64,000 bases of DNA from Clostridia bacterium (lineage in GTDB: Bacteria; Bacillota; Clostridia; Oscillospirales; CAG-272): positions 12,265 to 76,264 of the forward strand of contig JAGASL010000063.1 of the NCBI GenBank assembly GCA_017621755.1, read 5' to 3'. The notes below the pieces were generated by a model. The model was not told the origin of the DNA and did no database searches. It saw only the letters and a program-made list of their open reading frames with translations. The position numbers and the translations under genes were made by a program. How positions within the stretch are numbered: the stretch's first letter is position 1; each line of letters begins with the position of its first letter. This document shows, in pieces, positions 31,068 through 48,724 of this stretch.

Positions 31068-33953
31068 ATGAAATTCAGCAAGATCGTGCTCGCCCTTCTT
31101 CTGATCCTGGCGATTACGGCCGCTTGCTTTGCCTGTGCACCCGCAGGCGAAGACAATCCGCCGGATGAAACGCCCGGTGGCGAAACACCCGGTGGTGAGA
31201 CCCCTGGTGGCGAAACGCCCGGCGGTGAGACCCCCGGCGGTGAAACGCCCGGTGGTGAAACGCCCGGCGATGAGGAGCCGGATCCTACCGGTGAGTTCAG
31301 CATCGTTTTTCAGCGCGGTAGAACCGGTGAGTGCGTTGTAGCCGGCTTTGTCGGCAGAGGTGAGGGCGAGATCGTCATTCCCTCTACTTACCTGCTCGAG
31401 GGAGATGAGGAAGAGAGCATCGTTGTCGGTATTGCGGCCGGTGCCTTCCGCAATTGCAAGTACATCACCTCGATCGTCGTGCCGGATTCGGTAAAGACCA
31501 TCGGTCTTGGCGCCTTTGAGGGCTGTGCAGCGTTGGAATCGATCACCCTTCCCTTTGTGGGCGGTGCTCCTACGGCGAATACCTATATCGGCCACATCTT
31601 TGGTGCACAGACCTTTACCGAGAATGCAGCCTTTGTGCCTGCCTCGCTTGCAACCGTAAACCTTAGTGAAGCCTGCACTGCAATCGCCCCCTTCGCCTTT
31701 GATGCCTGCACGGGTGTTAAGGCTGTTCATATGGGGAACGCGATGGCAACCATTGGCGCGTACGCCTTTGCCCGCTGCGGCATTACCGAGGTGAACCTGC
31801 CTGATTCGGTTACAACGCTTGGCGTTGGTGCGTACCTGGAATGCCCGGTTGAGAAGGTGGTACTGCCCTTTGTAGGTGCAGATAACACCGGTGCTATCGG
31901 TTACTTAGGTCATATGTTCGGTGCTGCGAATTATGCGCAGAACAAGGATTTCGTTCCCGCCACGCTGAAGCAGCTTTCGCTTAGCACGGTCTGCACCACC
32001 ATCGGTGCCGGTGCCTTTAACGATTGCGTAGCGTTGGAGGAAATCGACCTACCGAACACCATTACGAATATTGGCGAGAACGCTTTTACGAACACCCCGT
32101 ATTTCGATGCTAAGCCGGATGGCCTTGTATACGTAGACACCGTTCTGTATACGTATAAGGGTGAGATGGGTGAGGCTACCGATATCGTGGTAGAGCCCGG
32201 CACGATCGCGATTGCCGCCGGCGCCTTTGACGGGCTGCCGATCACCTCGATCAGCATTCCGGATTCGGTTGTTAACATCGGTGCTGCCGCCTTCCGTGGC
32301 AGCAAGCTGGTAGACATCACGCTGCCCTTCATTGGCGAAAACGTGGCTGCTCCTGCCAACAATTATCTTGGCTATATCTTCGGTGCCGCTTCGGCTGAGG
32401 AGAACGCTTCCTGCGTGCCCGAAACGCTGAGAACTGTAACGCTGTATGACGGCTGTACCACCATTGCCGCCCGCGCCTTCTACGGCTGTGCGAATCTGAC
32501 GGCTGTTAACATTGGCAGCGGTGTTACCTCGATCGCCAAGGATGCCTTCTTTGATTGCAGAGCCCTGGCTGATATCACCATTGATACAGAAAACGCAAGC
32601 TATAAGAATGATAGCAAGCTGGTTTATAACGTAGCAGGTGACGATCTGATCGCCGTTCCTATGGCGGTGAAGGGCGATATCACCCTGCTGAACATTACCG
32701 AGATCGCTGAGGGGCAGTTCCGCAACTGCACCGGCATTACCTCGGTCGTCCTGCCCGAAACGCTGATCAAGATCGGCGACCAGGCCTTCTACGGGCTGGA
32801 GGGGCTGGCAAACGTCAACTTCCCAGAGTCTCTCGTTGGCGTTGGCGCTGGCGCATTTGAGGGTACCGGCTGGTACAACAGCCAGCCTGACGGTGTTGTT
32901 TATACCGGTAACGTGCTTTATAAGTTTAAGGGTGAGTCCGGCTCTGAGATTAAGGTGCTGGATACCGTAACCGGTATTGCTGCGGGCGCATTTGCCAACT
33001 GCAACATCGTATCGATTGATATTCCCGCCTCGGTTACCAACATTGGTGAGGGTGCCTTCCAGAACTGCCAGCTGCAGTCGATCACCGTTCCCTTTATCGG
33101 TGCCGATGCAACGGATGAGACCAAGTCTTACCTGGGTTACCTCTTTGGCGCTCCCTCTTCCGCTGTGGCTGGCAACTTCGTTCCCGCTACGCTGAAGTCG
33201 GTTACGCTGCTGGATGGTTGTGCTTCTATCGGCCCCGGTGCCTTTAACGGTTGCGCTAACGTAGAAGAGCTGAATATTCCTCAGTCTGTTACCTACGTAG
33301 CTGGCGAGGCGCTGAATCAGACCGCCTGGTTCAAGAGCCGTGAGGCTGGTGTGGTTTACGTTGGCCGTGTTGCTTATGCCTTTGTGGCTCCCGAAAAGAC
33401 TCACCAGGAATACCTGGATGAGATTGCAGCCCTGCCTGAGGATGCAGAGCCGATCGTAAGCCCCTATGAGGTCGTTCTGCGCGCTGATACCACCGCCATC
33501 GCTGATAAGGCCTTCTACCGTGCCGAGATCGTTTCTATCCGTATTCCGGATACCACGATCTACATCGGTGACAGCGCCTTCTACAACTGCCTGGCGCTGG
33601 CTAAGCTGCGTATGCCCTCGTTCCTTGAGACGCTTGGCGAATACGCCTTCTATAGCTGTAAGGCCCTGACTGAGGTTTACATCCCCGGTACGGTTGTTGA
33701 TATTCCGCAGTTTGCCTTCTACAACTGTGATGCACTTCGTTCCGCTACCTTCGGTGAGGGTATCAAAACGATCGGTGCCTCCGCCTTCTCCAGCTGCGAT
33801 GCCTTCTACACCTACTCCTACACCGGCAACAAGCCCGATTGGGACGAGGTTGTAAAGGATGACTCGAATAAGGACCTCTTCAACGTAAGAACGCCTAAGT
33901 ACGGTGTTCTCTACACGCCGGAGCCCTTTGAGATCGTAGAGGAAGAAGCGTAA
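31068..33953 (+). CDS. large surface lipoprotein with BspA-type leucine-rich repeats
   Basis: Signal peptide with Cys-containing lipobox region (ITAACFAC). (PGGET)n linker. More than 15 LRR units of the pattern I.IP.SVT.IG..AF..C..L..I.. Confidence 0.8.
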   Translation: MKFSKIVLALLLILAITAACFACAPAGEDNPPDETPGGETPGGETPGGETPGGETPGGETPGGETPGDEEPDPTGEFSIVFQRGRTGECVVAGFVGRGEGEIVIPSTYLLEGDEEESIVVGIAAGAFRNCKYITSIVVPDSVKTIGLGAFEGCAALESITLPFVGGAPTANTYIGHIFGAQTFTENAAFVPASLATVNLSEACTAIAPFAFDACTGVKAVHMGNAMATIGAYAFARCGITEVNLPDSVTTLGVGAYLECPVEKVVLPFVGADNTGAIGYLGHMFGAANYAQNKDFVPATLKQLSLSTVCTTIGAGAFNDCVALEEIDLPNTITNIGENAFTNTPYFDAKPDGLVYVDTVLYTYKGEMGEATDIVVEPGTIAIAAGAFDGLPITSISIPDSVVNIGAAAFRGSKLVDITLPFIGENVAAPANNYLGYIFGAASAEENASCVPETLRTVTLYDGCTTIAARAFYGCANLTAVNIGSGVTSIAKDAFFDCRALADITIDTENASYKNDSKLVYNVAGDDLIAVPMAVKGDITLLNITEIAEGQFRNCTGITSVVLPETLIKIGDQAFYGLEGLANVNFPESLVGVGAGAFEGTGWYNSQPDGVVYTGNVLYKFKGESGSEIKVLDTVTGIAAGAFANCNIVSIDIPASVTNIGEGAFQNCQLQSITVPFIGADATDETKSYLGYLFGAPSSAVAGNFVPATLKSVTLLDGCASIGPGAFNGCANVEELNIPQSVTYVAGEALNQTAWFKSREAGVVYVGRVAYAFVAPEKTHQEYLDEIAALPEDAEPIVSPYEVVLRADTTAIADKAFYRAEIVSIRIPDTTIYIGDSAFYNCLALAKLRMPSFLETLGEYAFYSCKALTEVYIPGTVVDIPQFAFYNCDALRSATFGEGIKTIGASAFSSCDAFYTYSYTGNKPDWDEVVKDDSNKDLFNVRTPKYGVLYTPEPFEIVEEEA
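31166..31270 (+). repeat. 7 x 15-bp in-frame tandem repeat (GAAACNCCCGGNGGY) encoding (ETPGG)n
   Basis: Seven consecutive 15-nt units read directly; copies differ only at synonymous or wobble positions. Confidence 0.9.
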
Positions 33954-33962
33954 CGCTTATAC

Positions 33963-34007
33963 AATAAAAAACGGAAAGAAATAGAGCGGTACTCTTAAGG
34001 ACAGTTT
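33963..34007 (+). repeat. left arm of a ~45-bp inverted repeat bracketing AT-rich islet 1
   Basis: aataaaaaacggaaagaaatag is the exact reverse complement of 38040-38061. The next 23 nt match 17/23. Confidence 0.85.
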
Positions 34008-34010
34008 TTC

Positions 34011-34047
34011 AAAAAACGGCATATCTCGAAAGAGGTATGCCGTTTTT
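34011..34047 (+). terminator. intrinsic terminator after the LRR gene
   Basis: A-run, cggcatatctc-gaaa-gaggtatgccg stem, ttttt. Confidence 0.65.
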
Positions 34048-34090
34048 GCTTTTGTGTCTACAAAAGCAGTGCTTGTCAGGAAAATTGACA
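34048..34090 (+). repeat. 43-nt repeat, copy A (two small hairpins)
   Basis: gcttttgtgtcTAcaaaagcagtgcttgtcaggaaaattgaca is 41/43 identical to 44772-44814. Weaker similarity continues about 20 nt further. Confidence 0.85.
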
Positions 34091-34153
34091 GAAGCGTAAA
34101 CGAACAAAGAGACTATCACATTAAGAAAGTCTTTTTGTTCCTTCTTTGCCCTA

Positions 34154-36301
34154 TTATTTTGCAAACACCCCGTAAATCAACGTCGAATATTTGTCGTTAT
34201 CGGCGGAAAAGCTTACGCTTTCGACCGTGTCCGAGGAATCAACGGTAATATCGAGGCGGTTGGAAACATATATCTCAAAGTTTTTGTCATATCCAAACGT
34301 CGCAAATCTTCCCGATTTTGTGGCGATCGGATCGATCTTCGACGAGCCTTTGAGTGCAAATGCCGTAGTTATATGAACACCGTTTTTCAGGGATATTGTT
34401 TCCGTTTTGCCGCTCTTATAGTTTATACTTACACAGCAAGCATCCTCACCGTATGTCCCGCCGAGAGGATAGCCCGACGTTATCGACGTGAGCCCTATGA
34501 TCGAAATGATATCGGCGCGACGTCCAAGCTTAAATGAAAAATTCCTTTCCGAAGATACAACCACGGGGATCTTATCTATCGACCCGCCCGATTCAAATAT
34601 CGGTCCCGTCTTTATCTGCCTCGCTCTGATTCTATGCTTCTCGTTAACGTCGATCTTCGTAACAAGCTCAAAGAATCTGTCATCTTTCGGAGATTCAAGT
34701 TTTATATAATCCGACATGTCGGAAAATGTTTCAGATTCGTTTATCCAAAAAGCGACATCATTTTGATCGGCATTTTCGTCAAAAAGCCTGAGTCCCTCGC
34801 AAAAAGCGTTGAAAATAAGATTCGGATGTCTGTATTTATCGACGAGAGCCTCCATAAGTACGCCGTCAACGCACGCTGGTCTGCCACGGTTATAGTCGTT
34901 GACCTCGGCAAAATACCAGAAAAACGCGCCGGCAAGTGCGCCGTCATCGGAGTTCGCATCGTAAAGCATTTTCATTTCACTCATAAAATCAAGAAGCAGA
35001 TGAGGATTGTCGTAAACGTGATAACCGCCCCACTCACTGAACAAAAGAGGCTTATCGTGAAGGATCTCCGCGCTTGTTTTTGATCTCTTAAACGTATCGG
35101 AATACGGGTGCATCGTATAAAAATCAAATTCACATTTATTATAATGATAAAGCGTTTCCTCGTTCGTCATACAGTTCGCGCCCGAAACGAGCCTTGTTGG
35201 ATCGTATTTACGGCATACGGCAGCACTGTCAGCCAAAAACTTCTCCGTAAATTCGCATTCGTTGAAGCAAAGCCAAAACACAATGCTGGGGTGATTGCGG
35301 TCACGAAGTATCGTTCGCCGAAGAACCTCCAGACTGCCGTTCGCGACCTCAGGGAGAGAAGTATCCGACCACCAGAGTCCCGGCTCCTCCGAAACCATAA
35401 GACCGAGCCTGTCCGCGATCTCCAAGATCTTTTTATTATGCGGATAATGAACGAGCCTTACGAAATTACAACCCATTTCCTTTATCATACGCATATCGTT
35501 TTCCATCTCGGCAACGGATGGAGAATGTCCGCTATCGCCAACCATTTCGTGTTTGCAAACGCCCTTCAAAAACAAATGTTTACCGTTTAAAACAAATCTG
35601 TGGCGGTCGCACAAAAATTCTCTGAAGCCGACGTCAGCGGTGTAAACGTCACGGACCTCGCCATCGCAAATAAGGCTTACCGCAAGCGAATAAAGCCTCG
35701 GTGTGTCGGGCGACCAAAGCTCCACTCCGTTCACATGAGCGGTAACGGTTTCTCCTGCTTTTTGCGTGTATGACGAAACAAGCTCGCCGCCCGAGAAAAG
35801 CTCTATCTTAAAACGCGCATCCGACGGACATTTTGCGCTTATATCTATTGACATATCCGCATTTGCGTAATTATCGCAAAGACTCGACTTGAAAAATACG
35901 TTTTCTATATAATATTTGCCCCGAAGCTCAAGATAAACGTCGCGTATGATCCCACCGAAATTCTCCCATCCGTTACTCGGTCCGAACGCTCTGTTAATAT
36001 CCTCAAGCACGACGGTGAGCGTGTTTTCCTTTTGCTTCACTATCTCCGTCACGTCAAACTCGTATTCGCTGTACGGAAGCATTTCCCCCAAAACCACGCC
36101 GTTGAGCATAACCTCTGCATAATAGGTTATTCCGTCAAATTTCAAAAATATGTTATCGGAAAGCTCAAGCATATCAAATTTCTTAACACACTCCGAGCGA
36201 CCGACAGGCAAACGGGAGAAAGGAACGCTTATGTCCGAAAAATCCCCGAATCCCACTCTGTATTTCCAATTCCCGTTAAGAGATACCGTTTTCATCTTCA
36301 T
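34154..36301 (-). CDS. glycoside hydrolase family 2 enzyme
   Basis: N-terminal sugar-binding pattern (LNGNWKY), HYPHN, acid/base FNECE, nucleophile region LFSEWGG. Start ATG 36301 after AAAGGAAA. Confidence 0.82.
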   Translation of the reverse strand: MKMKTVSLNGNWKYRVGFGDFSDISVPFSRLPVGRSECVKKFDMLELSDNIFLKFDGITYYAEVMLNGVVLGEMLPYSEYEFDVTEIVKQKENTLTVVLEDINRAFGPSNGWENFGGIIRDVYLELRGKYYIENVFFKSSLCDNYANADMSIDISAKCPSDARFKIELFSGGELVSSYTQKAGETVTAHVNGVELWSPDTPRLYSLAVSLICDGEVRDVYTADVGFREFLCDRHRFVLNGKHLFLKGVCKHEMVGDSGHSPSVAEMENDMRMIKEMGCNFVRLVHYPHNKKILEIADRLGLMVSEEPGLWWSDTSLPEVANGSLEVLRRTILRDRNHPSIVFWLCFNECEFTEKFLADSAAVCRKYDPTRLVSGANCMTNEETLYHYNKCEFDFYTMHPYSDTFKRSKTSAEILHDKPLLFSEWGGYHVYDNPHLLLDFMSEMKMLYDANSDDGALAGAFFWYFAEVNDYNRGRPACVDGVLMEALVDKYRHPNLIFNAFCEGLRLFDENADQNDVAFWINESETFSDMSDYIKLESPKDDRFFELVTKIDVNEKHRIRARQIKTGPIFESGGSIDKIPVVVSSERNFSFKLGRRADIISIIGLTSITSGYPLGGTYGEDACCVSINYKSGKTETISLKNGVHITTAFALKGSSKIDPIATKSGRFATFGYDKNFEIYVSNRLDITVDSSDTVESVSFSADNDKYSTLIYGVFAK

Positions 36302-36842
36302 TATTTTCCTTTCCATTTTTCATATCAAGTCTTATGTAAGCCGAAATAACAGAAATAATTCCGAACGTCTCGCAAAATATTCCGCCGAGCGAAAATACAA
36401 AGCAGTTATATATAAGCCAGCAGGGAGAATTGATAAATCCGCAAATACGTATCGCCCTTGAATCTTTCATTGAAAGCCCGACGGTCATAGCCCCCATTCC
36501 TATAAGCGGAAGAATTTCGATCAGAAGATTAAACGCAGTCGGTTCTTTTTTAAATACGGCGAAAATGAGGGCGTATGACGCCAGATACAGCGCCATAAAT
36601 ATGCCGTTCACGAGCTTTACGGGTATTTTTAGGCGATCCTTATTGATATACACAATGGCGCGCACGATCCCGACAACATTCAGCAGTCCGCCCATAAGTG
36701 CGTCGAGCATAAACATATTCACGGCAAAAAGCACCGAACCCACAAGCTGGCAAAGTATCACGATGCGCCTATTTTTAAACTGATACGCAGCAACGTTTGC
36801 CACCATCGCGAATATTCCTATTATCTGTGCTGTCAGTGTCAT
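36276..36842 (-). CDS. YgjV-family inner membrane protein (possible small-solute/sugar carrier)
   Basis: 188 aa with about six TM segments. N-terminal QIIGIFAMVANVAAYQFKNRR and C-terminal PCWLIYN...GG resemble my recollection of E. coli YgjV. Confidence 0.6.
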   Translation of the reverse strand: MTLTAQIIGIFAMVANVAAYQFKNRRIVILCQLVGSVLFAVNMFMLDALMGGLLNVVGIVRAIVYINKDRLKIPVKLVNGIFMALYLASYALIFAVFKKEPTAFNLLIEILPLIGMGAMTVGLSMKDSRAIRICGFINSPCWLIYNCFVFSLGGIFCETFGIISVISAYIRLDMKNGKENNEDENGIS

Positions 36843-37870
36843 GCGTTTTTCCTCTTTAAAACATAAGGGTACGCCTCGATAGCAAGCCTTGCAGCGCCAA
36901 ACGCCGCGTTTCCTATGTTTTTTGCGCTTATTTTAGCGGTAGCTTGCTTTATGACTGTATCATTGTAGCTTTTTTCGATCGACGGAATGATAACATCCTC
37001 ATATTTCGTGATCTCTCCGCAAATAATGATCTCGTCAAGCGAGATCATATTGCAAAAGTTCCCGAGCGCGATGCCAAGCTGTTCTCCTGCAAGTGTAAGA
37101 GCTTTTTGCCTATCGTCAGCCGACAAGCCGTCGATATAACTTACGTCTGAAAGTTCAAAAAGTCGTTTTCCGCTACCTATCGCCGTGTATCCAAGCTCAA
37201 GAAGCCCACCGTTAAAAAATCCGTTGAATCTATATATAGCTGCACCAATAGCCTTGTCAATTCTCAGAAGCATCTTGCTTTCCTTGCTTTCATCATCCAT
37301 ACAGCCGAGAAGCATACAGTTAGGGTCGTGCTCAACGACCGCAGAAATATTCAGATGTGACGCAATGTCGTTTTCAAAATTAATTTTTATATTATTTGAA
37401 AAGCTCCAACACCCCGAACCCGCGTCCTTGATTCCTTGCATAGCAAAACCGGAAATACATATATCGGGAAATTTATTTTGCATTTTTGTCACCGCAGAAA
37501 ATACATCACGAAGCAATTCACCTTTGCCGTCTGTGCTCAAAGAAGAATTACACTCGTAAAGCTTTTCGCCTGCAAGAGAGCAAACGCAGCAAGAAAGTCC
37601 GTTTTTGTTTATGTCAACACCAAGAATTTTTTTGCAGTCAGAAAGAGTTAGAATCGATGGAATTCTTCCCTTAGCATCAGAGGGCGGTAGCTTCTCCTCT
37701 ATAACCGTACCATCGGCGACAAGCATTCCTATAAGCTCCGAAATGCATCCCCAACTGAGCGAAAGTCTTGATGCAAGCTCACGTCGTGTTATATGCCCCT
37801 TCGAGCGTATAATCTTAAGAATTGCAGAAAGATTGTCGAATCGCTCCGCAGCTTGTTTTTCACTTGGCAT
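36839..37870 (-). CDS. ROK family transcriptional regulator
   Basis: N-terminal wHTH (ILKIIRSKGHITRRELASRLSLSWGCISELIGML) plus a ROK sugar-kinase-like fold. Start ATG 37870 after AGGAGG. Confidence 0.8.
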   Translation of the reverse strand: MPSEKQAAERFDNLSAILKIIRSKGHITRRELASRLSLSWGCISELIGMLVADGTVIEEKLPPSDAKGRIPSILTLSDCKKILGVDINKNGLSCCVCSLAGEKLYECNSSLSTDGKGELLRDVFSAVTKMQNKFPDICISGFAMQGIKDAGSGCWSFSNNIKINFENDIASHLNISAVVEHDPNCMLLGCMDDESKESKMLLRIDKAIGAAIYRFNGFFNGGLLELGYTAIGSGKRLFELSDVSYIDGLSADDRQKALTLAGEQLGIALGNFCNMISLDEIIICGEITKYEDVIIPSIEKSYNDTVIKQATAKISAKNIGNAAFGAARLAIEAYPYVLKRKNA

Positions 37871-37899
37871 ATACTTCCTCCTGATATTTTTCAACCGTT

Positions 37900-37938
37900 G
37901 ATATAATTGATTATATCACAGATATTTGTCCTTGTCAA
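37900..37938 (-). promoter_or_regulatory. ROK operon promoter with overlapping palindrome (candidate operator)
   Basis: Minus strand: TTGACA (37938-37933), 17 nt, TATAAT (37915-37910). The palindrome GATATAAT-tg-ATTATATC (37900-37917) overlaps the -10 box. Confidence 0.5.
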
Positions 37939-37954
37939 TATATAAATATAAAAC

Positions 37955-37990
37955 ATAAAAAACCGCAGATTTTTCTGCGGTTTTTGCTTT
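37955..37990 (-). terminator. intrinsic terminator after the GT4-CsaB gene
   Basis: aaaccgcaga-tttt-tctgcggttt stem flanked by A/T runs. Confidence 0.7.
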
Positions 37991-38016
37991 TTTCACCCGG
38001 TAGGTAATATACTGCC

Positions 38017-38061
38017 AAACTGTCCTTTAGAGCACAACCCTATTTCTTTCCGTTTTTTATT
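38017..38061 (-). repeat. right arm of the inverted repeat bracketing islet 1
   Basis: Reverse complement of 33963-34007. Overlaps the TAA stop (38057-38059) of the GT4-CsaB gene. Confidence 0.85.
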
Positions 38062-40201
38062 CAGACGTATTAAAAAATGAAAGAAAAGAGAAGTGCTCGC
38101 CCGGCGCGCGCATGGCGGCAAGCAGCCGGCGGCCCTGTTCCTTGCTTTGCGGTGCAGAAAGCATGCGGCGGATAGCGGGCAGGGGCGCGTTGCATGGCTC
38201 GCCCGGCAGGCAGAGAATCGGCGTTTCCTGTGTAGCGCAAGAGGCCGCGTAGGCGGCAAAGGCGCTGATCTTGCCGCCATCCTCTACCGTAATGGCGGGT
38301 GTGCCGGCTGCCACTGCAAAGATCAGCATATGCAGGCGCGTGGTGATCACCAAGCGGCAGCGGTTGGCAAGAAAGGCAACCGTCTCTTCGGCAGATAGGT
38401 GTGGTAGGATCTGTGCTGCGGGCACGCGCAGGCAACCTGCATGCGCCAGGGCTTGGTCCTGCCCCTCGTGCATGCAGGCAAAGGCCAGGCGAAGCCCTTC
38501 GTGCCGCGCAATGGCGGCGCAGGCATCGATCAGGGGCTTTGCTATGCACGCTGGGGTTTGACCATGCAGCGCTATAAGGAGCACGTCTCCTTTGGGTAGA
38601 TTGCTTGGCAGAGCGGTGGCTGGGCGTATCCATAGCGCGCCATCCGGCAATAGGCGTGTGCGCAGGGCGGGGGAGAGCTGCTGCGCATAAGCTATGTCCT
38701 GTGGGGTCCTACCAAGAAAGCCGTCTGCCAGCGGCAGTATACGGCAAACGAGGCGTTCGCCCGCCGTGTCTAAGCACCCTATTCCACCTACCAAAAAAAT
38801 GCGGCATCCACACCGTTTCGCAAAACGAATGACCTGCGTATAATATAGCAGGGAGCGGCGGCTGGTCTCGTTCTGTAAAAGATTGCCACCGCCCAGCAAA
38901 AAAATGCCGCGCTCGGCACCCACCCGGCGTATGGCAGAAAGAGAAAAGCGAGGCTCGGCTGCTACGTGGTGGCGCTCACTCGTTTCGCCCGGCCGCGCAG
39001 AAAGAACGGTTATGCGGCTAAAGCCCTCGCGCCGCAGGCGTAAAAGCAGATCGCCAAGCACCGCCTCGTCCCCCATGTTATGAAAGCCGTAGTAGCCGCA
39101 TATGATCATGGGTGGGCGCGGCCCTTTTTCTGCCAAGGCTCGATATACGCGAAAGGCATCCTCTACCATATCTTCGATGCTGTAATGGCGGCACACGTAG
39201 TCCCGGCCGTAGGCACCCAGCCGGCGGCGTAGCGGCTCGTCGCGCAGTAGCGCTGTCAGGTCGTCAAGCAGCCGCTCTTCCTTTAGCGCCTCTTCCCCCC
39301 GGCAGCAAAAATTGCTGCGCTCTGCCGCTTCAGCCACTGCTGACGAAAAGATAGAAAGGTACCCCTCGTCCCCGGCAAGCACCACCGCCAGGCCGCAGGC
39401 CATGGCCTCTAAGGCCGCTCGCGAAACACCGATAAACACATCCCCCTCCCGTAAAAGCGGCGCAATATCCGTTTGCGCGCCCGGCATGCGGATAAAGGGC
39501 TTGCCCAGCGCCTGGTTGATCCTTTCTGCCTCACGGTATAGCGGCGCAAAGCACTTGCCGTCACCTACGATCGTTAGCGAGGTGGCTCCCGCCGCCATCA
39601 GCGCCGGTGCCAAGGAGATCAGCGCTGTGGCGGCCGCCGCACGCCCCTCGTCCAGTCGGCTAACGTGTATCAGGCGGCGGCCATGGCCGCTGCCTGCGGC
39701 TGGGGCAAATCGGGTGGTGTTGATGCCGTTTTTCGTCACGGTAATGTCCCGCGGTGAGAGACGGTATTCCTTGATCAGATAGCGGCGAATATCCTCGCTC
39801 ACGGCAAGCGTGTGGTCGCCCCAGCGGCTCATGCGCCCACGCCAGCCATCGGCGCGAAAGACCCAATGCGCGGTGGTTACAAGAGGTATGTGCAGCTGCC
39901 GGCATAGCTTAGCAGCCAGGCAGGCTGGTATTCGTGCGTGGGCATGCACCAGCGTGTAACCGCCCTGTGATAGTAGCGTCTCTAACTGCCGCTTGGCGCG
40001 CACCAAGGCCAAGGGGCTGTGTGTTGCCCAGTTGATCTGAACGTGCTTCACCCCCTCACGTATCAGCCTTTGCGCGTAGGCACCGCCTGCGCTGGCGATC
40101 TCTACCGCCACACCGCGTGCAAGCAACCCGTGTATCAGCTCATAGATGTGTGTTTCAGCCCCGCCAAGGGCAAGGCGGTCTGTCAGCATCAGTATTTTCA
40201 T
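38057..40201 (-). CDS. fusion protein: GT4-type glycosyltransferase plus polysaccharide pyruvyl transferase (CsaB-like)
   Basis: N-terminus MKILMLTDRLALGGAETH (GT4 hallmark). From about aa 375, MIICGYYGFHNMGDEAVL (pyruvyl transferase N-terminal hallmark). Confidence 0.72.
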   Translation of the reverse strand: MKILMLTDRLALGGAETHIYELIHGLLARGVAVEIASAGGAYAQRLIREGVKHVQINWATHSPLALVRAKRQLETLLSQGGYTLVHAHARIPACLAAKLCRQLHIPLVTTAHWVFRADGWRGRMSRWGDHTLAVSEDIRRYLIKEYRLSPRDITVTKNGINTTRFAPAAGSGHGRRLIHVSRLDEGRAAAATALISLAPALMAAGATSLTIVGDGKCFAPLYREAERINQALGKPFIRMPGAQTDIAPLLREGDVFIGVSRAALEAMACGLAVVLAGDEGYLSIFSSAVAEAAERSNFCCRGEEALKEERLLDDLTALLRDEPLRRRLGAYGRDYVCRHYSIEDMVEDAFRVYRALAEKGPRPPMIICGYYGFHNMGDEAVLGDLLLRLRREGFSRITVLSARPGETSERHHVAAEPRFSLSAIRRVGAERGIFLLGGGNLLQNETSRRSLLYYTQVIRFAKRCGCRIFLVGGIGCLDTAGERLVCRILPLADGFLGRTPQDIAYAQQLSPALRTRLLPDGALWIRPATALPSNLPKGDVLLIALHGQTPACIAKPLIDACAAIARHEGLRLAFACMHEGQDQALAHAGCLRVPAAQILPHLSAEETVAFLANRCRLVITTRLHMLIFAVAAGTPAITVEDGGKISAFAAYAASCATQETPILCLPGEPCNAPLPAIRRMLSAPQSKEQGRRLLAAMRAPGEHFSFLSFFNTSE

Positions 40202-40270
40202 AGGCCTTCCTTGTTTGAAAGAAAAAACCGCCGCGGCAGAGCAGGCTGCCGGGCGGTGGCGTTTTATTTG

Positions 40271-40585
40271 TTAAAGGAGTGCGCCTTCCTCCTGCATGGC
40301 GGCCTCCTGGCTCGCCTCTACCTCGGCGGCGGCAAGCTGCACGTGATAGGCGTCTATCACGGCGTTTTCCAGCTCTGCCCGGAAACCGGCGTTGATGGGG
40401 TGAACGATATCGCGGTAGGTTCCATCCGGGTTCTTACGGCTGGGCATCACGATAAAAAAGCGTTCGCGTGCGTGAATGACCTTGATGTCATGTACGGCAA
40501 GTGCATCGTCAAAGGTGACAGAAACAACGGCCTTCATCGGGCCTTCGTCAAAGAATTTTCTGATCTTGATATCGGTGATCTGCAT
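40271..40585 (-). CDS. spoVG: septation protein SpoVG
   Basis: MQITDIKIRK...MKAVVSVTFDDALAVHDIKVI...FIVMPSRK. Start ATG 40585 after GAGGAAGGA. Confidence 0.9.
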   Translation of the reverse strand: MQITDIKIRKFFDEGPMKAVVSVTFDDALAVHDIKVIHARERFFIVMPSRKNPDGTYRDIVHPINAGFRAELENAVIDAYHVQLAAAEVEASQEAAMQEEGALL

Positions 40586-40772
40586 AGGCTTGTCCTTCCT
40601 CGTCGTTTGTATTTTTTGGATTTGTGACAAATACAGTATAAAAGAAAAATGTGAATACAGTTGTAATAGAAAATGTGAGTTTTGTTAAACATATTTGATC
40701 GATATATTACCAATTGAGGAAGAAGGTTGTTTGAATTTGTCGCTATCGAATACTTTTTCGCACCCCGCCTCG

Positions 40773-42182
40773 ATGCGGGCGGTTTTTTGCCGTCACCCAC
40801 GGTTGTTCTTTGTCGGAATTGGCGGTATCGGCATGCAGGGGCTTGCTATGCTGCTCTTTCGCCGCGGCTTTGCCGTTGGTGGCTCTGACCGTGCCGCCAG
40901 CCCGGCAATAGACCGTCTGCGTGCCATGGGCATACCCGTTACGATCGGCCACCGGGCAGAAAGCATCCGCGGCTACGACGTGCTGATCTACACCCTGGCA
41001 GCTGACCGCGAAACGCCCGAGCTGGCCGCCGCCAGGCGTGCCGCACTACCATGCTTTTCACGCGCCGATCTGCTTGGTTATCTGATGGCCGAATACCCCA
41101 TCCGTATCGGTGTGGCCGGCATGCACGGCAAAAGCTCTACCACCGCTATGTTAGCCGCCGTGCTGCGGGAGGGCGGCTTAGCGCCAACCGTTGCCTCGGG
41201 TGCTGCCATTGACCCCAGTGGTGCCGTGGTGCAGGAGGGGGGTAGGCAGGTCCTTTTGTGTGAGGCCTGCGAATACCGCGATTCCTTTCTCTGCCTGCAC
41301 CCCAGCATTGCCGTGGTGCTGAATTGCGAATGGGAGCATACCGATTATTTTAAGAGCCTGGCGCAGGTCAAGGCCTCCTTTCATACCTACATAAAGCGAG
41401 CCAGGACAGTAGTCCTGCCGGCTGATTGCTGCCAAAGCAGCCTGCCCCCCACCGCAGGCATGCGCGTGCTGCGCTTTGGCCTTTCACCGGTGGCGGATGC
41501 TCGTGCGGTGAATATCACCTATCGGGCAGGCTGTGCCTCGTTTGATTACCTGTTTTGTGGCATACATTGCGGTCGCGTTACGCTGGCGGTGCCGGGCGAG
41601 CACAACGTGCAAAACGCGCTGGCTGCCTTGGCGGTGGCCGAGGCCTGCCGCGTGCCGTTTGCTGCCTCGGCACGGGCGCTTGCCGCATGCCAAGGGGCAG
41701 ACCGCCGTCTATCGCTGCGCGGTGGCTGGCGCGGTATGGCAGTTTATGAGGATTATGCCCATCACCCCACCGAGATCCGTGCCTCGCTTGCCGCCTTGCG
41801 CCGCATCTTAGCCGGGCAGGCAAGGGAAGAGGGGAAGGAAAGGCCACGCCTGCTGTGCGCCTTTCAGCCGCATACCTATTCCCGCACCGCCGCTTTTTTT
41901 GATGCCTTTTGCGAAAGCCTCAGCATGGCTGACCGGGTCTGCCTGCTTGATATTTACGCCGCGCGAGAGCAGAATGAAAGCGGCGTTAGCGCGGCCGCGC
42001 TGGCCGCGGCGATACCCGGCGCCCACTATGCGGCCAATATGGATGAGGCGCGCGCCTACCTGGCAAAGATCGGGCACCCGGGGGATCTGTTGGTGGTGAT
42101 GGGCGCCGGGGATATTTCTCGCCTTTTGGAGGGAATGCCCCTGGCCACCTCTTGCAAAACCGAAGGGGATGTGGTACAATAA
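40773..42182 (+). CDS. murC: UDP-N-acetylmuramate--L-alanine ligase
   Basis: FFVGIGGIGMQGLA and GVAGMHGKSSTTAM. Start ATG 40773; TTG 40803 is possible. Confidence 0.86.
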   Translation: MRAVFCRHPRLFFVGIGGIGMQGLAMLLFRRGFAVGGSDRAASPAIDRLRAMGIPVTIGHRAESIRGYDVLIYTLAADRETPELAAARRAALPCFSRADLLGYLMAEYPIRIGVAGMHGKSSTTAMLAAVLREGGLAPTVASGAAIDPSGAVVQEGGRQVLLCEACEYRDSFLCLHPSIAVVLNCEWEHTDYFKSLAQVKASFHTYIKRARTVVLPADCCQSSLPPTAGMRVLRFGLSPVADARAVNITYRAGCASFDYLFCGIHCGRVTLAVPGEHNVQNALAALAVAEACRVPFAASARALAACQGADRRLSLRGGWRGMAVYEDYAHHPTEIRASLAALRRILAGQAREEGKERPRLLCAFQPHTYSRTAAFFDAFCESLSMADRVCLLDIYAAREQNESGVSAAALAAAIPGAHYAANMDEARAYLAKIGHPGDLLVVMGAGDISRLLEGMPLATSCKTEGDVVQ

Positions 42183-42204
42183 AAGAAAAAAGGAGGGGAA
42201 AAGC

Positions 42205-43470
42205 ATGACGGATGTTTCTATAATGGGCAAAAACCTGTGTTTTTCTCTTCCCACACAGGTGCATATGGTGCTTGATCGCCTTGCCAACGCCGGGCACGAG
42301 GCCTTTTTGGTAGGCGGCTGCGTGCGTGATTTCTTGCGTGGCGTGGTGCCGCATGATTATGACCTGACCACCAGCGCGCAGCCCGAGGAGATGCACGCCG
42401 CCTTTGCCGGCTTACGCACGATCGATACCGGCATTCAGCACGGTACGATCACGGTGCTGATCGACGGTATGCCCATTGAGGTTACTACCTATCGGGTAGA
42501 TGGGGATTACCACGATAACCGACACCCGGATGCGGTGACCTTTACCACCAGCCTGCGCGAGGACGTGGCGCGGCGCGATTTCACCATGAATGCGCTGGCC
42601 TATCACCCCGCCATAGGCATTTGCGATTATTTTGGGGGCTGTGCCGATATCGCCGATCGCCGTATTCGCGCGGTGGGCGAGCCGCATCGCCGCTTTGAAG
42701 AGGATGCGCTGCGCATCCTGCGCGCATTGCGCTTTTCGGCCGTGCTTGGCTTTTCTATCGAAGAAAAGACCGCCGCCGCCGCGCGGGATCGCGCGCATCT
42801 GCTTGCCAACGTATCGGCCGAGCGTATCCATGAGGAGCTGACAAAGCTGCTCTGCGGCCAAAACGTGCAGGCCGTGCTGCATGAATATGCCGGTGTGTTA
42901 GCCGCCGCGCTGCCGGCCTGGTACCGGGCGGCACGCGATGATATCGCACCGCTTGCCAAGCGAGTCGGCGCTATGCCAAGTGACCCGGTTGCTCGCTTCA
43001 CAGCCTTTCTTTCGCCGCTGGCAGAGATGCCGGGTGAGGCCGACCGGGTGATGGCTGACCTGCGCTTTGACCGCCGCACGCGCGAGCGGGTGGGCAAGCT
43101 GCTTGCCCATCAAACCGACCCCTGCACGGGAGATCTGCCTACGCTACGCCGCTTTGTAGCCGGCCTTGGTGCCGGGGATGCCCGCCTGATGCTGGCCATG
43201 CACCAAGCCACCGCCACGCTCACCGGGGATGAAGAAAGGCAAAACGCGCTTGCCACCGCCCACGAGACGATTGATGCGCTTTTGCAGCAAGGGGCCTGCT
43301 GCTCGGTGCGTGATTTAGCTATTGGCGGTGCCGATCTGCTGGCGCTTGGCTGTGCGCCCGGCAAGACCATGGGTCTTTGCCTGCAGCGCGCATTTTCTGC
43401 CGTGTTAGACGGCGGGGTAGAGAACGAAAAAAACGCCCTGCTTGCCTACTGTAAGCAGCATTTGCTATAA
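42205..43470 (+). CDS. cca: CCA tRNA nucleotidyltransferase
   Basis: FLVGGCVRD...DYDLTT and ERDFTMNA motifs. Start ATG 42205 after AAGGAGGGG. Confidence 0.85.
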   Translation: MTDVSIMGKNLCFSLPTQVHMVLDRLANAGHEAFLVGGCVRDFLRGVVPHDYDLTTSAQPEEMHAAFAGLRTIDTGIQHGTITVLIDGMPIEVTTYRVDGDYHDNRHPDAVTFTTSLREDVARRDFTMNALAYHPAIGICDYFGGCADIADRRIRAVGEPHRRFEEDALRILRALRFSAVLGFSIEEKTAAAARDRAHLLANVSAERIHEELTKLLCGQNVQAVLHEYAGVLAAALPAWYRAARDDIAPLAKRVGAMPSDPVARFTAFLSPLAEMPGEADRVMADLRFDRRTRERVGKLLAHQTDPCTGDLPTLRRFVAGLGAGDARLMLAMHQATATLTGDEERQNALATAHETIDALLQQGACCSVRDLAIGGADLLALGCAPGKTMGLCLQRAFSAVLDGGVENEKNALLAYCKQHLL

Positions 43471-43516
43471 AAAGAAGGAGAGACCTTGGCGTACCTGCGA
43501 TAAAGCAGTATTTTAC
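43464..43516 (+). repeat. L arm: inverted-repeat partner of 45077-45127, overlapping the cca stop
   Basis: gctataaaaagaaggagagac (43464-43484) is the exact reverse complement of 45107-45127. ataaagcag and ttttac blocks are also shared. Confidence 0.85.
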
Positions 43517-43633
43517 TTTTTATTGATGTAAAGTACTGCTTTATCTATTTAACAATGAATTGATAATTGAAAAAAAGAAAAATTATACTATAATAAAATC
43601 GTAAGCTTACAAAATTTATTTTGGAGGTACGAT

Positions 43634-44740
43634 ATGAACATTAAAATAGGTGCGATTATAAAAAAACTTCGCCAAGAAAATAATATCACACAGGACACCC
43701 TTGCCACCGCTATAGGCGTTACGCCTCAAGCGATATCTCGTTGGGAATCCGAAGGAGGTTATCCCGACATAGAACTTCTTCCGCCGTTGGCAGACTTTTT
43801 CTCGGTCAGCACGGATGAGCTTCTTGGATATAAGCTGTCGGAGCGAGAAGAAGAACTTGCAAATATCAAGAAAGAATTGCGCCGTTTGGCAGAAGTGGGA
43901 ACACATCAAGAAAAGCTTTCTTTCGCGCGCGATGCGTTTGTAAAATTTCCTAACGATTTCAAAATCAAAGTTTATCTTGCAGCCTGTTTGTCGGACGAAT
44001 GGAGCAATACACACGAGAAATCTCTGATTCATGAATCTGAAACCCTCTGTTTATCGGTAATTGACGACTGTCATGATGAAGATATACGTTATGAAGCAAT
44101 TTGCACATTAAGCAGTATTTATAACGAATTGGGAGAAATAAAAAAAGCGCGAAGTACTTTAGAATTGCTCTCTCCTATGAAGTACTGCCGCGAAACTGCT
44201 CTTGCTTGCGGAATAGGTGACGGAAATACAGAATTGTATATTCAAGACGAGATCGATAAATTTACAGATGGCTTGGGATTGTCTATCCACAATCTTGCAC
44301 TACATGAAGATTTGCCGGACGATTCATCTACTTGGAATAAAAAAATTGAAATGCTTACCATTTCCAATCGTTTGTATAAGATGATATACGGAGATAACCT
44401 TATGTTTTATCATACACGGCTTTCAAGAAACTATTGGTTATTCTCCACCTATCAGATTGCGCAAGGCAAAAATGCGGAAACGCTTGAATCTCTTGAAAAA
44501 ATGTGTTATCACGCTATTGAATATGATAAAGCGTATATCAATGACCACGGTAAATATTTTACGTCAATTCTTACCGACAAATTGATTTATCCTGAACCGA
44601 GCAAAGATTTTCACGAGTGTACAGAACACACAGAATGCTATCATATTCTTAAAAAAATGAAGCATCCTCGATATGATTGCATCCGTCAAGATTCCCGTTT
44701 TATTTCAATTGTTGAGAAATTGAATCAATATTCGAAATAA
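43634..44740 (+). CDS. XRE-family HTH regulator with helical-repeat (TPR-like) C-terminal domain
   Basis: N-terminus IKKLRQENNITQDTLATAIGVTPQAISRWESEGGYPDIELLPPLADFFSVSTDELLG. RBS GGAGG. AT-rich codon usage. Confidence 0.75.
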   Translation: MNIKIGAIIKKLRQENNITQDTLATAIGVTPQAISRWESEGGYPDIELLPPLADFFSVSTDELLGYKLSEREEELANIKKELRRLAEVGTHQEKLSFARDAFVKFPNDFKIKVYLAACLSDEWSNTHEKSLIHESETLCLSVIDDCHDEDIRYEAICTLSSIYNELGEIKKARSTLELLSPMKYCRETALACGIGDGNTELYIQDEIDKFTDGLGLSIHNLALHEDLPDDSSTWNKKIEMLTISNRLYKMIYGDNLMFYHTRLSRNYWLFSTYQIAQGKNAETLESLEKMCYHAIEYDKAYINDHGKYFTSILTDKLIYPEPSKDFHECTEHTECYHILKKMKHPRYDCIRQDSRFISIVEKLNQYSK

Positions 44741-44771
44741 GTTATCCTTGCCCCGCCTTGCGCGGGGCTTC

Positions 44772-44814
44772 GCTTTTGTGTCCGCAAAAGCAGTGCTTGT
44801 CAGGAAAATTGACA
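44772..44814 (+). repeat. 43-nt repeat, copy B
   Basis: 41/43 identical to 34048-34090. The two differences fall in the loop of hairpin gcttttg-N6-caaaagc. Confidence 0.85.
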
Positions 44815-44995
44815 AGGCATAGATGAACATAAAAGAAAGGCTCCCTTGTGTAAAGGGAGCTGACGCCGAAGGCGGCTGAGGGATTGTGTTACGATGAAAT
44901 TTTTTCTTTTTACAATCCCTCCGTCACGCTAACGCGTGCCACCTCCCTTTGCACAAGGGAGGCGTATTGCCACCCGACAGTACGCCTAAAAGGTG

Positions 44996-45127
44996 TAACA
45001 CACTATACCTTGCGAGGTAAGGAGTGTGAAAAGGAGTACGAACGAAAATGTTCATACTCCTTTTGCTTTTCGTCAGGTAAAACCTGCTTTATGGGAGGCA
45101 CCCGTTGTCTCTCCTTCTTTTTATAGC
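44996..45127. repeat. convergent-junction module, copy 1 (E element plus R arm)
   Basis: taacacactatacc..gtgtgaaaagg, a variable terminator hairpin, then gtaaaacctgctttatgggaggcacccg. Alignable to 58478-58621. Confidence 0.75.
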
Positions 45128-46050
45128 TTGTTTTCATACCGCTCGGCGGTGATGATGCCGTCCTTCACCTGCAGGCGGCAGGCGCGTGCAGTGCGCTCCT
45201 CGCGGTAGCCGCTGCCATCCTTGGGGGCGTAATCACGCCCGTGGTAGATGGCGTAATACTCGCCCCGCCATTTGATCACGCTGTGGTGGCCGGTGCCCTC
45301 CTCAAACTCGTTTTTGATCAGCACCGGGGCAAAATGCCCGTCCTTTGTGTGCTTTTCAAGATCGAGCTTGGTCAGGTCGGTCTCGCCGGTCTTTGCCGCC
45401 GCATAACCGATGTGGTAGGTGTCATCCTGGTAACAGCCGCCGCTGTACATCACATACTGCCATTCCCCCTCCTGGAACCAAAAGGCACCCTCAATGGTGT
45501 GCCAGTTGCGTTCGGGCGTGCACTGCGGGGTAAACCACTCCTCGTCAAAGGTGGGAACGATCATCTCGCGCACCTCGTTTGCGGGCGTGTAAGGGTCAAG
45601 CAGACGATCAATGCATACCCGCGTGCCAACGCGTTCGCAAGCAAGATTATCCTGCGCAAACCACAAAAAGAGCCCGGCATCGGTTTTCACCACGTGAGAA
45701 TCGATTGAAAATCGATGATAAAGCCGCTTTTCGTCGGTAAACGGCCCAAGCGGCGAGGTGGCGCGCGCTACGTGCATATGCTCATTGCAGGCCTCGCCGT
45801 CAATGCTTCGATAGCAGGAAACGTACATGTAATAAATGCCCTCATGCTTGATGACCGAGGGTGCCCAAAAATCCCGTCCGTCTGCAAAGGCGGTCACCAC
45901 GCCCTCATAGTGCCACACGTCGGTCAGGTCGGTGGCGGAATAGGCCTCAACCCCCTCGCTACCGGTCACGTACAGATATAGCCTGCCGTCATCCTCAAAA
46001 ATAAAGGGATCCGGCTGGGTTCTTCCACAAACGTCAAATTTCAGCTTCAT
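45121..46050 (-). CDS. glycoside hydrolase family 43 enzyme
   Basis: DPFIFEDDG, FWAPSVIKHEGIYYMY, IDSHV, and EGAFWF, typical of the GH43 five-bladed propeller. Confidence 0.8.
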   Translation of the reverse strand: MKLKFDVCGRTQPDPFIFEDDGRLYLYVTGSEGVEAYSATDLTDVWHYEGVVTAFADGRDFWAPSVIKHEGIYYMYVSCYRSIDGEACNEHMHVARATSPLGPFTDEKRLYHRFSIDSHVVKTDAGLFLWFAQDNLACERVGTRVCIDRLLDPYTPANEVREMIVPTFDEEWFTPQCTPERNWHTIEGAFWFQEGEWQYVMYSGGCYQDDTYHIGYAAAKTGETDLTKLDLEKHTKDGHFAPVLIKNEFEEGTGHHSVIKWRGEYYAIYHGRDYAPKDGSGYREERTARACRLQVKDGIITAERYENKL

Positions 46051-47045: not shown

Positions 47046-47090
47046 CGTTTTTTCCTCCGTTGGTTCGGTGGGGACTTGGTGGTTGTGTTC

Positions 47091-47119
47091 ATTCTATCAT
47101 ATTTTGTTGGTGAAATCAA
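47091..47119 (-). promoter_or_regulatory. promoter of the SGNH-GH43 operon
   Basis: Minus strand: TTGATT (47119-47114), 17 nt, TAGAAT (47096-47091). Confidence 0.5.
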
Positions 47120-47180
47120 GACACGCGGGCCTTTTTATTTGAGGCAACGTCTCAACATCGTTCATTTGTGTCGCAAGTAG

Positions 47181-47345
47181 CAATGAAGTTCTCGGCGTTC
47201 TGCTTCAGATGAAATGAAATGTACCTTCATTGCCTGTTGCAAGACAGATTTCATCGCAAAGCGATTTCATCCACCGCAGGTGGATTTCTTCCGCCATCGG
47301 CGGATTTAGTTGAAAAAAGCACTTGCTTACGCAAGTGCTTTTTTC
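47181..47345. repeat. word-plus-hairpin array 1 (word ATTTCAT and its complement ATGAAAT) ending in a bidirectional terminator
   Basis: Hairpins at 47234-47247, 47255-47263, 47271-47283 and 47291-47303, each followed by ATTTCAT/ATTTCTT/ATTTAGTT. Tandem ATGAAATGAAATG at 47209-47221. Terminator at 47312-47345. Confidence 0.7.
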
Positions 47346-47431
47346 TGGCTGTTACGAACCATTTAGATGTCAAGTTAATGTTGGAGCATTACAAAGCAAA
47401 AGCTTCGTCTTTCATCCGTATAGGATAAACC

Positions 47432-48472: not shown

Positions 48473-48683
48473 ACCTATCCACCAAAATATAAGATTTGAG
48501 TTTTTACTATATTATATTATAAAAGCATTTATTTAGCAAGACACGAAACTTGTTTTTTCGGTTTGCATCAATTTAAACGGAGGTTTTTTTGATATTAGAG
48601 CCGCCAAGGCGGCGGCAAGGGGCACTTTTGTGTAGTAGAAATTGTAAATCGAGCAGGCTGACACAGCGGATGCGGCTCTCACC

Positions 48684-48716: not shown

Positions 48717-48724
48717 TCTTTGCT

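Follow-up and report, generated by a model that had tools for sequence, protein, structure and literature searches.

The integrative mobilisable and conjugative transposons of Clostridia, represented by Tn4451/Tn4453 and Tn5397, are moved by the large serine recombinases TnpX and TndX, respectively, and excise as circles with a GA core. Smaller elements that are moved in trans are also known: MIC231 of Bacillus cereus and the bacterial MITEs (transposable miniature elements with inverted repeats) hold passenger genes, or nothing at all, between inverted repeats of the insertion sequence (IS) type. Extragenic hairpins serve as targets for IS1397 and ISKpn1, which insert in the loops of repetitive extragenic palindromes (REPs), and for class C group II introns, which insert after terminators. 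For Tn4451, TnpX is the sole transposon protein required for transposition, going by the title of reference 55 in PMC5704250, and the DUF4368 clade, including a TndX-like transposase subfamily, is multi-targeting with relaxed specificity (Durrant et al., bioRxiv 10.1101/2021.11.05.467528). Cis-mobilizable elements (CIMEs), in turn, have lost their integration and transfer genes while keeping both attL and attR (PMC5704250). Here we describe a 4,059-bp, low-GC islet in a 64-kb stretch of a Clostridia bacterium contig (JAGASL010000063.1; this whole stretch is hereafter the window, and the coordinates of the insert and islet are in its numbering). The islet is a discrete insertion at the centre of the hairpin loop of a host bidirectional terminator, and it is a non-autonomous cassette of a terminator-splitting family, probably moved in trans by the DUF4368 recombinase of larger elements.

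The boundaries of the insertion are defined by comparison with a sister strain, 97–98% identical, in which the site is empty. In the window, the islet lies between two convergent host genes: an LRR_5/BspA-type leucine-rich-repeat (LRR) gene of 961 codons on the plus strand (31068–33953; Pfam LRR_5, E = 1e-116), and a minus-strand gene for a 714-residue GT4 glycosyltransferase (GT) fused to a CsaB-type pyruvyl transferase (GT4-CsaB; 38057–40201; Pfam). Contigs L005, L006 and L007 encode a GT protein that is 97% identical (P0001). L005 and L007 have 48 nt between the GT gene and the end of the same 961-residue LRR gene, which thus adjoins the empty site as it does the insertion; the L006 contig stops within the hairpin. 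The order at the empty site is GT stop, AATAAAAAACGGAAAGAA-AT-TTCTTTCCGTTTTTTATT, LRR stop, and the intergenic sequence reads ...GAATAAAAATAAAAAACGGAAAGAAATTTCTTTCCGTTTTTTATTGTATAAGCGTTA..., with a perfect 38-nt palindrome making up 38 of its 48 nt. When folded as RNA, either strand of the palindrome forms a 17-bp stem with a 4-nt AAUU loop (–21 kcal/mol; z = –6.7 and –5.6). Together with an upstream A-tract, a GC-containing stem, a downstream T-tract, and the convergent arrangement of the genes, these features identify the empty site as a bidirectional intrinsic terminator. Synteny of the GT4-CsaB gene extends to the empty-site strains and to L009, a relative whose protein is 57% identical and in which another intact hairpin occupies the corresponding convergent junction; a contig with an 87% identical GT protein (L008) retains the start of the same hairpin as the empty-site strains.

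Alignment of L005 with the window by BLAST places the breakpoints at 33982 and 38042 with an overlap of 2 nt. The insert therefore corresponds to 33983–38041 (AGAGCGG...CAACCCT). A single AT in the empty site becomes two in the occupied site, one on each side of the insert (33981–33982 and 38042–38043), representing either a target duplication or the crossover core of a recombinase. The preliminary description of this DNA had pointed to a 22-mer at 33963–33984 that is the exact reverse complement of 38040–38061, followed by a further match of 17 in 23 nt. A search of the window recovers these two copies and no others (none is expected in shuffled sequence), and a repeat finder lengthens each arm to 45 nt (89% complementarity, spacer of 4,009 nt), in agreement with the earlier count to within one base. 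Comparison with the empty site reveals these arms to be composite. Specifically, the outer 18 nt and the shared AT are host sequence, and the inner 25–26 nt belong to the insert. The left host half (AATAAAAAACGGAAAGAA, A-tract and stem; 33963–33980) is contiguous in L005 and L007 with the right half (TTCTTTCCGTTTTTTATT; 38044–38061), and the two rejoin there as the 38-nt palindrome. The arms had been interpreted as a split bidirectional terminator, with the suggestion that relatives be sought with an empty site and an intact hairpin; both ideas are borne out, by L005 and L007 in full and by L006 and L008 in part. Two origins had been offered for the islet, either foreign cargo that entered a terminator loop or a non-autonomous element bounded by terminal inverted repeats; these coincide, although the element's own repeats are 25–26 bp long and not 45. 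Insertion stands, and the mechanism, described at the time as unseen, now has a strong candidate in the clade of DUF4368 large serine recombinases encoded on larger elements.

Composition is consistent with these boundaries. The GC content is 0.41–0.48 inside the islet and 0.55–0.63 outside it, with sharp steps at ~33.9 and ~38.05 kb; over the whole element it is 0.438, compared to 0.556 for the rest of the window, so that the lower GC previously estimated from spot counts is confirmed by the computed profile. At third codon positions, GC is 0.41–0.51 in the three inner genes and 0.63–0.67 in neighbouring genes. The occupied junction was assembled independently in contigs L001 and L003, both of which encode the exact GT4-CsaB protein together with the islet. 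Two further, independent contigs, L002 (10226) and L004 (5667), end at the same base, at window position ~37976, 81 nt past the GT4-CsaB stop; this shared break could reflect an assembler stopping at a palindrome or repeat, or a population that is mixed for the insertion. As previously noted, the right arm covers the TAA stop codon of the GT4-CsaB gene (38057–38059). The empty-site strains possess six extra bases (AAAATA) between this stop and the A-tract of the terminator (window 38057–38062 compared to L005 10141–10152), and the stop codon is therefore within the hairpin arm only in the cassette-carrying strain.

The same cassette is present at other loci. The islet encodes a GH2 glycoside hydrolase, a YgjV-like protein, and a ROK-family regulator, and three GH2 homologues (94, 84 and 78% identical) all occur within the same ROK-YgjV-GH2 operon. 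These operons occupy three further genomic contexts, flanked by convergent genes in every case, giving four different loci in all. In L010, nucleotide identity of 92.6% spans window positions 38043 to 33980 and ends at the same nucleotides, between different genes, and the flanks are once more the two parts of a divided hairpin that has a T-run: AAGCCACGGC-AT-[element]-AT-TGCCGCGGCTTTTTT. The L011 copy retains both repeats with AT on each side, and the L012 copy has lost one end. Cassette GC is ~0.435 in three hosts whose own GC ranges from 0.44 to 0.56, and 0.485 in the decayed L012 copy.

To define the wider family, the repeat core TDCTCTWAAGGACAGTTT was used as the query of an exact search in one genome per species, and matched at least 120 stretches, nearly all from metagenome-assembled genomes (MAGs) of uncultured Clostridia. 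Among the matches listed, the taxa include Oscillospiraceae, Acutalibacteraceae and 'Eubacteriales' from ruminant and human guts, several MAGs contain more than one match, and many matches lie at contig ends. The same 18-mer core yielded seven chance-like matches in viral contigs, none with the features of the family. Thirty-nine complete elements of 372–4,059 bp were delimited, the window element being the largest. Their cargo is varied, and most elements contain one to three genes. Of 161 open reading frames (ORFs) clustered from inside and beside the repeats, the large and recurrent ones were scanned; they encode housekeeping or accessory functions, and no transposase was present among them.

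The sequences around these elements reveal the nature of the target. Sequence conservation begins 9 nt outside the repeat core, and the outer flank has an A-run at 159 of 166 ends, compared to 333 of 2,000 random positions (17%). In 20 of the 39 complete elements the two flanks are complementary at 16 or more of 24 positions, as against 1.6% of mismatched pairs; read inward, the two flanks are typically identical over 9–20 nt, and they are therefore split palindromes. Nearly all of the cassettes interrupt terminators of the A-tract/stem/T-tract kind. The left end (L-end) of the family reads TT-AGAGCNGTACTCTAAAGGACAGTTTT, and the right end (R-end) either AA-TGGGNCGTACTCTTAAGGACAGTTTT or AT-AGGGTTGTACCCT..., the R-type repeat being (A/T)GGGNCGTACTCTWAAGGACAGTTT. 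The ends are modular. L-ends consist of a conserved terminator hairpin and a conserved module, and R-ends are of two types, one comprising ACCTACCGACAG, a hairpin, and a TG-extended –10 box facing the cargo, and the other a hairpin and a 43-nt motif. Several members occupy terminators directly after an apparent tRNA 3′ end (...GGGTCACCA followed by an A-run; L027 4930–4975, L034, and L122 7820–7864), and terminators downstream of tRNA genes may thus be among the targets used.

The dinucleotides at the junctions obey a simple rule. In 35 of the 39 elements the two flanking dinucleotides form a direct repeat, at one offset only (neighbouring offsets give 0–10 of 39), and is AT in 11 elements, TT in 11, AA in 11, and TA in 2. 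When the offsets are combined with the end types, all 22 AA/TT cases read TT with the element oriented from L to R. A symmetric staggered cut by a transposase should give both orientations, and a dinucleotide that travels with the element is what marks a serine-recombinase core. The remaining geometry is also as for large serine recombinases (attP ~50 bp, attB ~40 bp), with a 2-bp repeat at both junctions, half-sites of ~25 bp, and a target palindrome of 38 bp.

A recombinase of this kind was indeed found at ends of the family. In three loci of the first scan (L062, L129 and L131), the 3′ end of a gene for a 553–570-residue protein lies just inside the L-end hairpin; the protein possesses Resolvase, Recombinase, Zn_ribbon_recom and DUF4368 domains, as in a large serine recombinase, and a ParB-like gene adjoins its gene. 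A search of metagenomes with this protein yielded 80 relatives. In 10 of the 10 relatives at 65–84% identity (84%, and 65–66%), the family repeat occurs 64–72 nt past the recombinase stop codon. Beyond the repeat, nine of these possess TT (read from L to R) and then a stem and T-run that differ at each locus; in L136 the repeat is degraded, and no such dinucleotide or stem flanks it. None of the relatives at or below 62% identity among the 80 has the family repeat. In viral contigs the recombinase scan returned relatives of 61–62% identity only, with no repeat downstream in L133 and with L134 ending just past the match. Thirteen larger relatives (the three first-scan loci and the ten from metagenomes) thus share the L-end terminus with the small cassettes. 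The sequence beyond the repeat is not the same at any two loci, which makes the repeat the end of these elements and not their landing site. In the three elements scanned, the recombinase genes have ParB-like genes as neighbours; two of the three, L135 and L142, also encode a MobA/VirD2 relaxase, accompanied in L142 by ParB-like and ParM-like proteins. L135 and L142 are therefore integrative mobilisable elements of the Tn4451 kind, with sizes above 10 kb.

Comparison with Tn4451 and Tn5397 highlights both kinship and difference. The larger, putatively autonomous relatives encode the same Resolvase–Recombinase–Zn ribbon–DUF4368 kind of enzyme together, in those scanned, with a relaxase or ParB-like gene, and the elements described here have in common with those transposons a 2-bp direct repeat, imperfect inverted-repeat ends, and many target sites. 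However, the core is TT or AT here, the targets are loops of terminator hairpins, and the window element, one of very many small cassettes, is without recombinase, relaxase or origin of transfer. Separately, a walk outward through a 466-residue upstream protein led to an unrelated small locus with a TnpV gene and no repeats. A widespread 449-residue protein (289 homologues at E ≤ 1e-60) adjoins a TnpV (PF14198) gene in L215–L219 (e.g. L215 9694–11765), in a small block between GH43 and pyruvate:ferredoxin oxidoreductase genes that no family repeats flank; the 449-residue protein is also encoded in the recombinase-bearing element L142.

These observations suggest how the window cassette would have arrived. 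The enzyme is most likely a multi-targeting large serine recombinase with a DUF4368 domain (TnpX/TndX-like), provided by a resident or incoming mobilisable element. The two terminal repeats (25 and 26 bp), joined around the dinucleotide, would constitute an attP of ~53–54 bp, probably in a circular intermediate; the 38-bp palindromic terminator would be the attB, and the flanking dinucleotide the 2-bp crossover. The recombinase would synapse the joined cassette ends with the terminator, cut both at the central dinucleotide, rotate the strands, and religate them, so that each side is left with the dinucleotide and one half of the terminator. The circle junction expected for the window cassette is ...GAGCACAACCCT-AT-AGAGCGGTACTC..., and the attB junction expected after excision is AACGGAAAGAAATTTCTTTCCGTT. 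The terminators carried by the cassette probably replace the one that is split: hairpin B, at the L-end, would stop both the LRR transcript and the cargo operon, and hairpin A, at the R-end, would stop the GT4-CsaB transcript, such that the cargo, with its own promoter and regulator, would be insulated. In keeping with the absence of a large serine recombinase gene from islet and window, the islet is at most a non-autonomous satellite of an element that encodes one. A wider proposition, about as likely as not, is that gut Clostridia possess a large system of dispersed cassettes, in which cargo units equipped with promoter and terminators, and empty 0.37-kb miniatures, are bounded by DUF4368 attP half-sites and moved in trans into the loops of bidirectional terminators. 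Here, targeting would possibly depend on A-tract/loop/T-tract geometry or on extruded cruciform DNA, and not on the stem sequence. The family would then be to serine recombinases what MITEs and integron cassettes are to their own enzymes, with transcriptional insulation built in.

Several points weigh against assigning movement to the DUF4368 recombinase. The 64-kb window contains no serine recombinase gene. The far (R) end of the recombinase-bearing elements, where an R-type repeat would be expected, was not found within 10 kb; loose repeat searches for that end gave nothing, a search upstream revealed no complementary terminator half, and tblastn of element genes against the first-scan loci located no far end. 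Neither a joined-ends (attP) junction nor a circle occurs in the fetched loci, and viral contigs gave 0 matches. In addition, the core is a palindromic AT in the window cassette and in ten others but TT at all 13 recombinase-linked ends, and the AT-core subfamily may use a different enzyme. Finally, serine integrases normally read attB by sequence. The stems vary freely here, and recognition would therefore need to involve A/T tracts, the loop, or DNA structure.

The difference in cores is also an argument for an alternative in which the cassettes are moved by some other site-specific recombinase, such as a related serine recombinase dedicated to the AT-core subfamily or a hairpin-recognising enzyme, the common terminus indicating ancestry only. 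This view gains from the AT core of the window element with its end variants AGAGCGG and AGGGTTG, compared to the TT core of recombinase-linked ends, and from the related but different repeat of a second islet in the window (islet 2; described below). We nevertheless regard it as unlikely, because the repeat core and the L-end hairpin are common to AT-core and TT-core elements, and because two recombinase subclades that are only 65% identical have kept the same terminus. The DUF4368 recombinase is also preferred over an unseen DDE transposase of the IS30 kind, with 2-bp duplications and a preference for palindromes, which would make the islet a MITE-like or mobile insertion cassette. Repeats of 25–26 bp, a 2-bp flanking repeat, insertion at a dyad centre, a multicopy family, and varied cargo would all suit such an element. 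However, no DDE transposase was detected within or next to any of ~170 ends, the invariant TT orientation is unlike a symmetric staggered cut, and the sole recombination enzyme that travels with the terminus is a serine recombinase, leaving a DDE origin quite improbable. That the operon was never inserted, being ancestral and precisely deleted from the sister strains or else the product of a chimeric assembly, has next to nothing to recommend it: contigs L002 and L004 do break in hairpin A, but the empty site is a perfect, functional-looking terminator that is shared by the 87% relative and replaced by another intact hairpin in the 57% relative, deletion between inverted repeats would not restore a terminator, the composition is foreign (0.44 compared to 0.56), and the occupied junction is independently assembled in L001 and L003, with the cassette also present at other loci. 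Among further candidates, IS3-type insertion into palindrome loops was rejected for want of TG...CA ends and of a 3–4-bp duplication, IS200/IS605 elements are excluded by the terminal inverted repeats and flanking repeat, and ideas based on protelomerases or hairpin telomeres were dropped as there is no evidence for them.

Under the favoured explanation, mobilisation in trans by a DUF4368 recombinase, the cassettes resemble several described elements in some respects and differ from them in others. MIC231 and MITEs have a similar size range and copy number but depend on DDE transposases. IS1397, ISKpn1 and class C introns likewise target extragenic hairpins and spare genes, but they use other enzymes and end structures and do not form cargo cassettes, and no intron was matched here by Rfam. 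Integron cassettes are also small, mostly single-gene units with varied cargo and no recombinase of their own, and their recombination site has hairpin symmetry; here, however, there is no attC, IntI or array, and the units are single, dispersed, and often equipped with their own promoter, with ends that are inverted repeats split around a host hairpin. Like CIMEs, the window cassette keeps both ends and is without integration or transfer genes. However, CIMEs are decay products that stand in tandem with an incoming integrative and conjugative element (ICE) or integrative and mobilizable element (IME) at one specific site (PMC5704250), whereas the present cassettes are solitary (neither the window nor L001 has another element next to the islet), dispersed and modular, and they look designed for movement in trans. 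The relaxed specificity of the DUF4368 clade fits the A-run/TT/T-run profile of the family; the text of Durrant et al. (10.1101/2021.11.05.467528), however, does not contain the words terminator or palindrome, and non-autonomous cassettes are not described there. Serine recombinases are absent from a 2024 review on MITEs of prokaryotes.

The kind of enzyme and its multi-targeting behaviour are already known, as are non-autonomous derivatives of DDE elements and CIMEs for ICEs and IMEs. In the open-access literature searched, we found no small cassettes with cargo, or miniatures, that have serine-recombinase half-sites as their ends, no bidirectional terminator loops as a natural recombinase target, and no built-in replacement terminators in such cassettes. 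The family is large in gut Clostridia and apparently undescribed, and non-autonomous elements, well known for DDE transposases, were not found described for large serine recombinases. Insofar as the proposed mechanism holds, accessory genes, among them those for glycoside hydrolases, regulators and transporters, would pass between uncultured Clostridia of the gut by way of a landing site that is low in cost because it lies between convergent genes and because the cassette hairpins replace the split terminator. The proposed natural target of DUF4368 recombinases would comprise an A-tract, a stem, a TT or AT loop, a second stem, and a T-tract, with an attP of ~54 bp; multi-targeting DUF4368 recombinases are under development as genome-integration tools. 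Some of the contig breaks and small low-GC islets seen in MAGs of these lineages are probably due to this family.

The anatomy of the window cassette follows the family plan. The left terminal inverted repeat (AGAGCGGTACTCTTAAGGACAGTTTT, 26 bp; 33983–34008, plus strand) and the right one (AGGGTTGTGCTCTAAAGGACAGTTT on the minus strand, 25 bp; 38017–38041) were delimited by the repeat finder and are where homology to L010 ends; they are imperfect, and each is a proposed attP half-site. Hairpin B, the L-end bidirectional terminator (34012–34047), begins 4 nt inside the left repeat; the terminator scan and folding give a 16-bp stem and T-run, and the sequence is conserved across family L-ends. Hairpin A (AAACCGCAGA...TCTGCGGTTT; 37958–37985), detected by the terminator scan on both strands and conserved in one type of family R-end, lies 31 nt inside the right repeat. 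Between hairpin A and the right repeat is the R-end subterminal motif ACCTACCGGGTG (37994–38005, minus strand; family consensus ACCTACCGACAG), which occurs at 65 family R-ends. The 43-nt subterminal motif GCTTTTGTGTCTACAAAAGCAGTGCTTGTCAGGAAAATTGACA (34048–34090, plus strand), at the start of the L-end module, is 95% identical to positions 44772–44814 of islet 2, is kept in family L-ends, and also occurs near one type of R-end.

Three cargo genes, all on the minus strand, are the only ORFs of the islet, and its gene content had been correctly recognised before Pfam agreed on these and on both host genes. The GH2 gene (34154–36316; an ORF of 720 codons, called as 715 in L001) is identified by Pfam GH2 domains, and among named proteins it is closest to beta-galactosidases, beta-glucuronidases and a beta-galacturonidase, all with scores below the family cut-offs. 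The YgjV-like inner-membrane protein (188 residues; 36276–36842) matches Pfam Imp-YgjV with E = 7e-30. The ROK-family regulator (36839–37894; Pfam ROK and HTH_24) possesses an N-terminal winged helix-turn-helix and is NagC/Mlc-like, with weak matches to the NCBIfam NagC/Mlc families that fall below cut-off. A predicted cargo promoter (37910–37938, minus strand) comprises TTGACA, 17 nt, and TG-TATAAT, with 12 of 12 sigma-70 consensus positions and the TG extension; its boxes are recognisable in L010, L011 and L012. The –10 box is overlapped by a 9-bp inverted repeat (TGATATAAT/ATTATATCA) that is mostly preserved in the three copies at other loci; this repeat is a possible operator. The preliminary description had also credited the islet with its own promoter and terminators, in accord with the consensus promoter and the two bidirectional hairpins, and had seen no transposase or integrase in it; no recombinase or transposase gene is indeed present among the islet ORFs.

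The L-end module merits separate description. It extends over 200–300 nt from the 43-nt motif, via GGCTCCCTTGTGTAAAGGGAGC..., to GAGGGATTGT...ACAATCCCTC (window 34048–34090 and 44772–45104; loci L024–L126). In about 10 of 29 copies the module encloses a 122-codon DUF559 gene (Vsr-like nuclease fold), and the other copies, including that of islet 2, consist of the palindromic flanks only. A structured RNA was considered for the module and rejected, the module being the flanks of a nested DUF559 gene. A search of Rfam over positions 33000–46000 returned four weak sub-threshold matches (E ≥ 0.07), none of them to an intron or mobile-element RNA, and none for the 43-nt motif or the L-end module.

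Islet 2 (43488–45104; 1.6 kb, GC 0.395) is absent from L005 and has as cargo a gene for a 368-residue HTH_3/RstR-like repressor. Its host context comprises a gene for a CCA-adding enzyme (poly(A) polymerase family) and a GH43 gene, and at its position L005 possesses an intact hairpin, AAAAGAAGGAGAGAC-CTT-GTCTCTCCTTCTTTT (–33 kcal/mol). Islet 2 thus splits the loop of a second bidirectional terminator, and TT (or TTG) flanks it at either end. The core of its inverted repeat is ATAAAGCAG..TTTTAC; the repeat is related to, but distinct from, the one of the main family, and among the fetched loci this motif occurs only in contigs of this organism; the 43-nt motif and the longer L-end module are held in common with the main family. 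A third low-GC stretch (0.40; 47000–49000), with a GH172 gene, is common to both strains. The strains have unrelated segments at its edge (47122–47182), of 61 nt in the window and 143 nt in the other strain, and a degenerate version of the 43-nt motif lies within the 61-nt segment.

Short arrays were also observed in element ends and intergenic regions, in which a 7–9-nt unit alternates with small hairpins, the unit differing from array to array (e.g. GTGAAGTT, GTTATGA, TCGATAT and CATGAATTG). They are located at the R-ends of L036, L086, L093, L097 and L132, at L005 936–1076 (a block of 141 nt that is absent at window position 48672), and at L011 5065–5340, where an array block of ~290 nt interrupts the R-end hairpin of the cassette itself.

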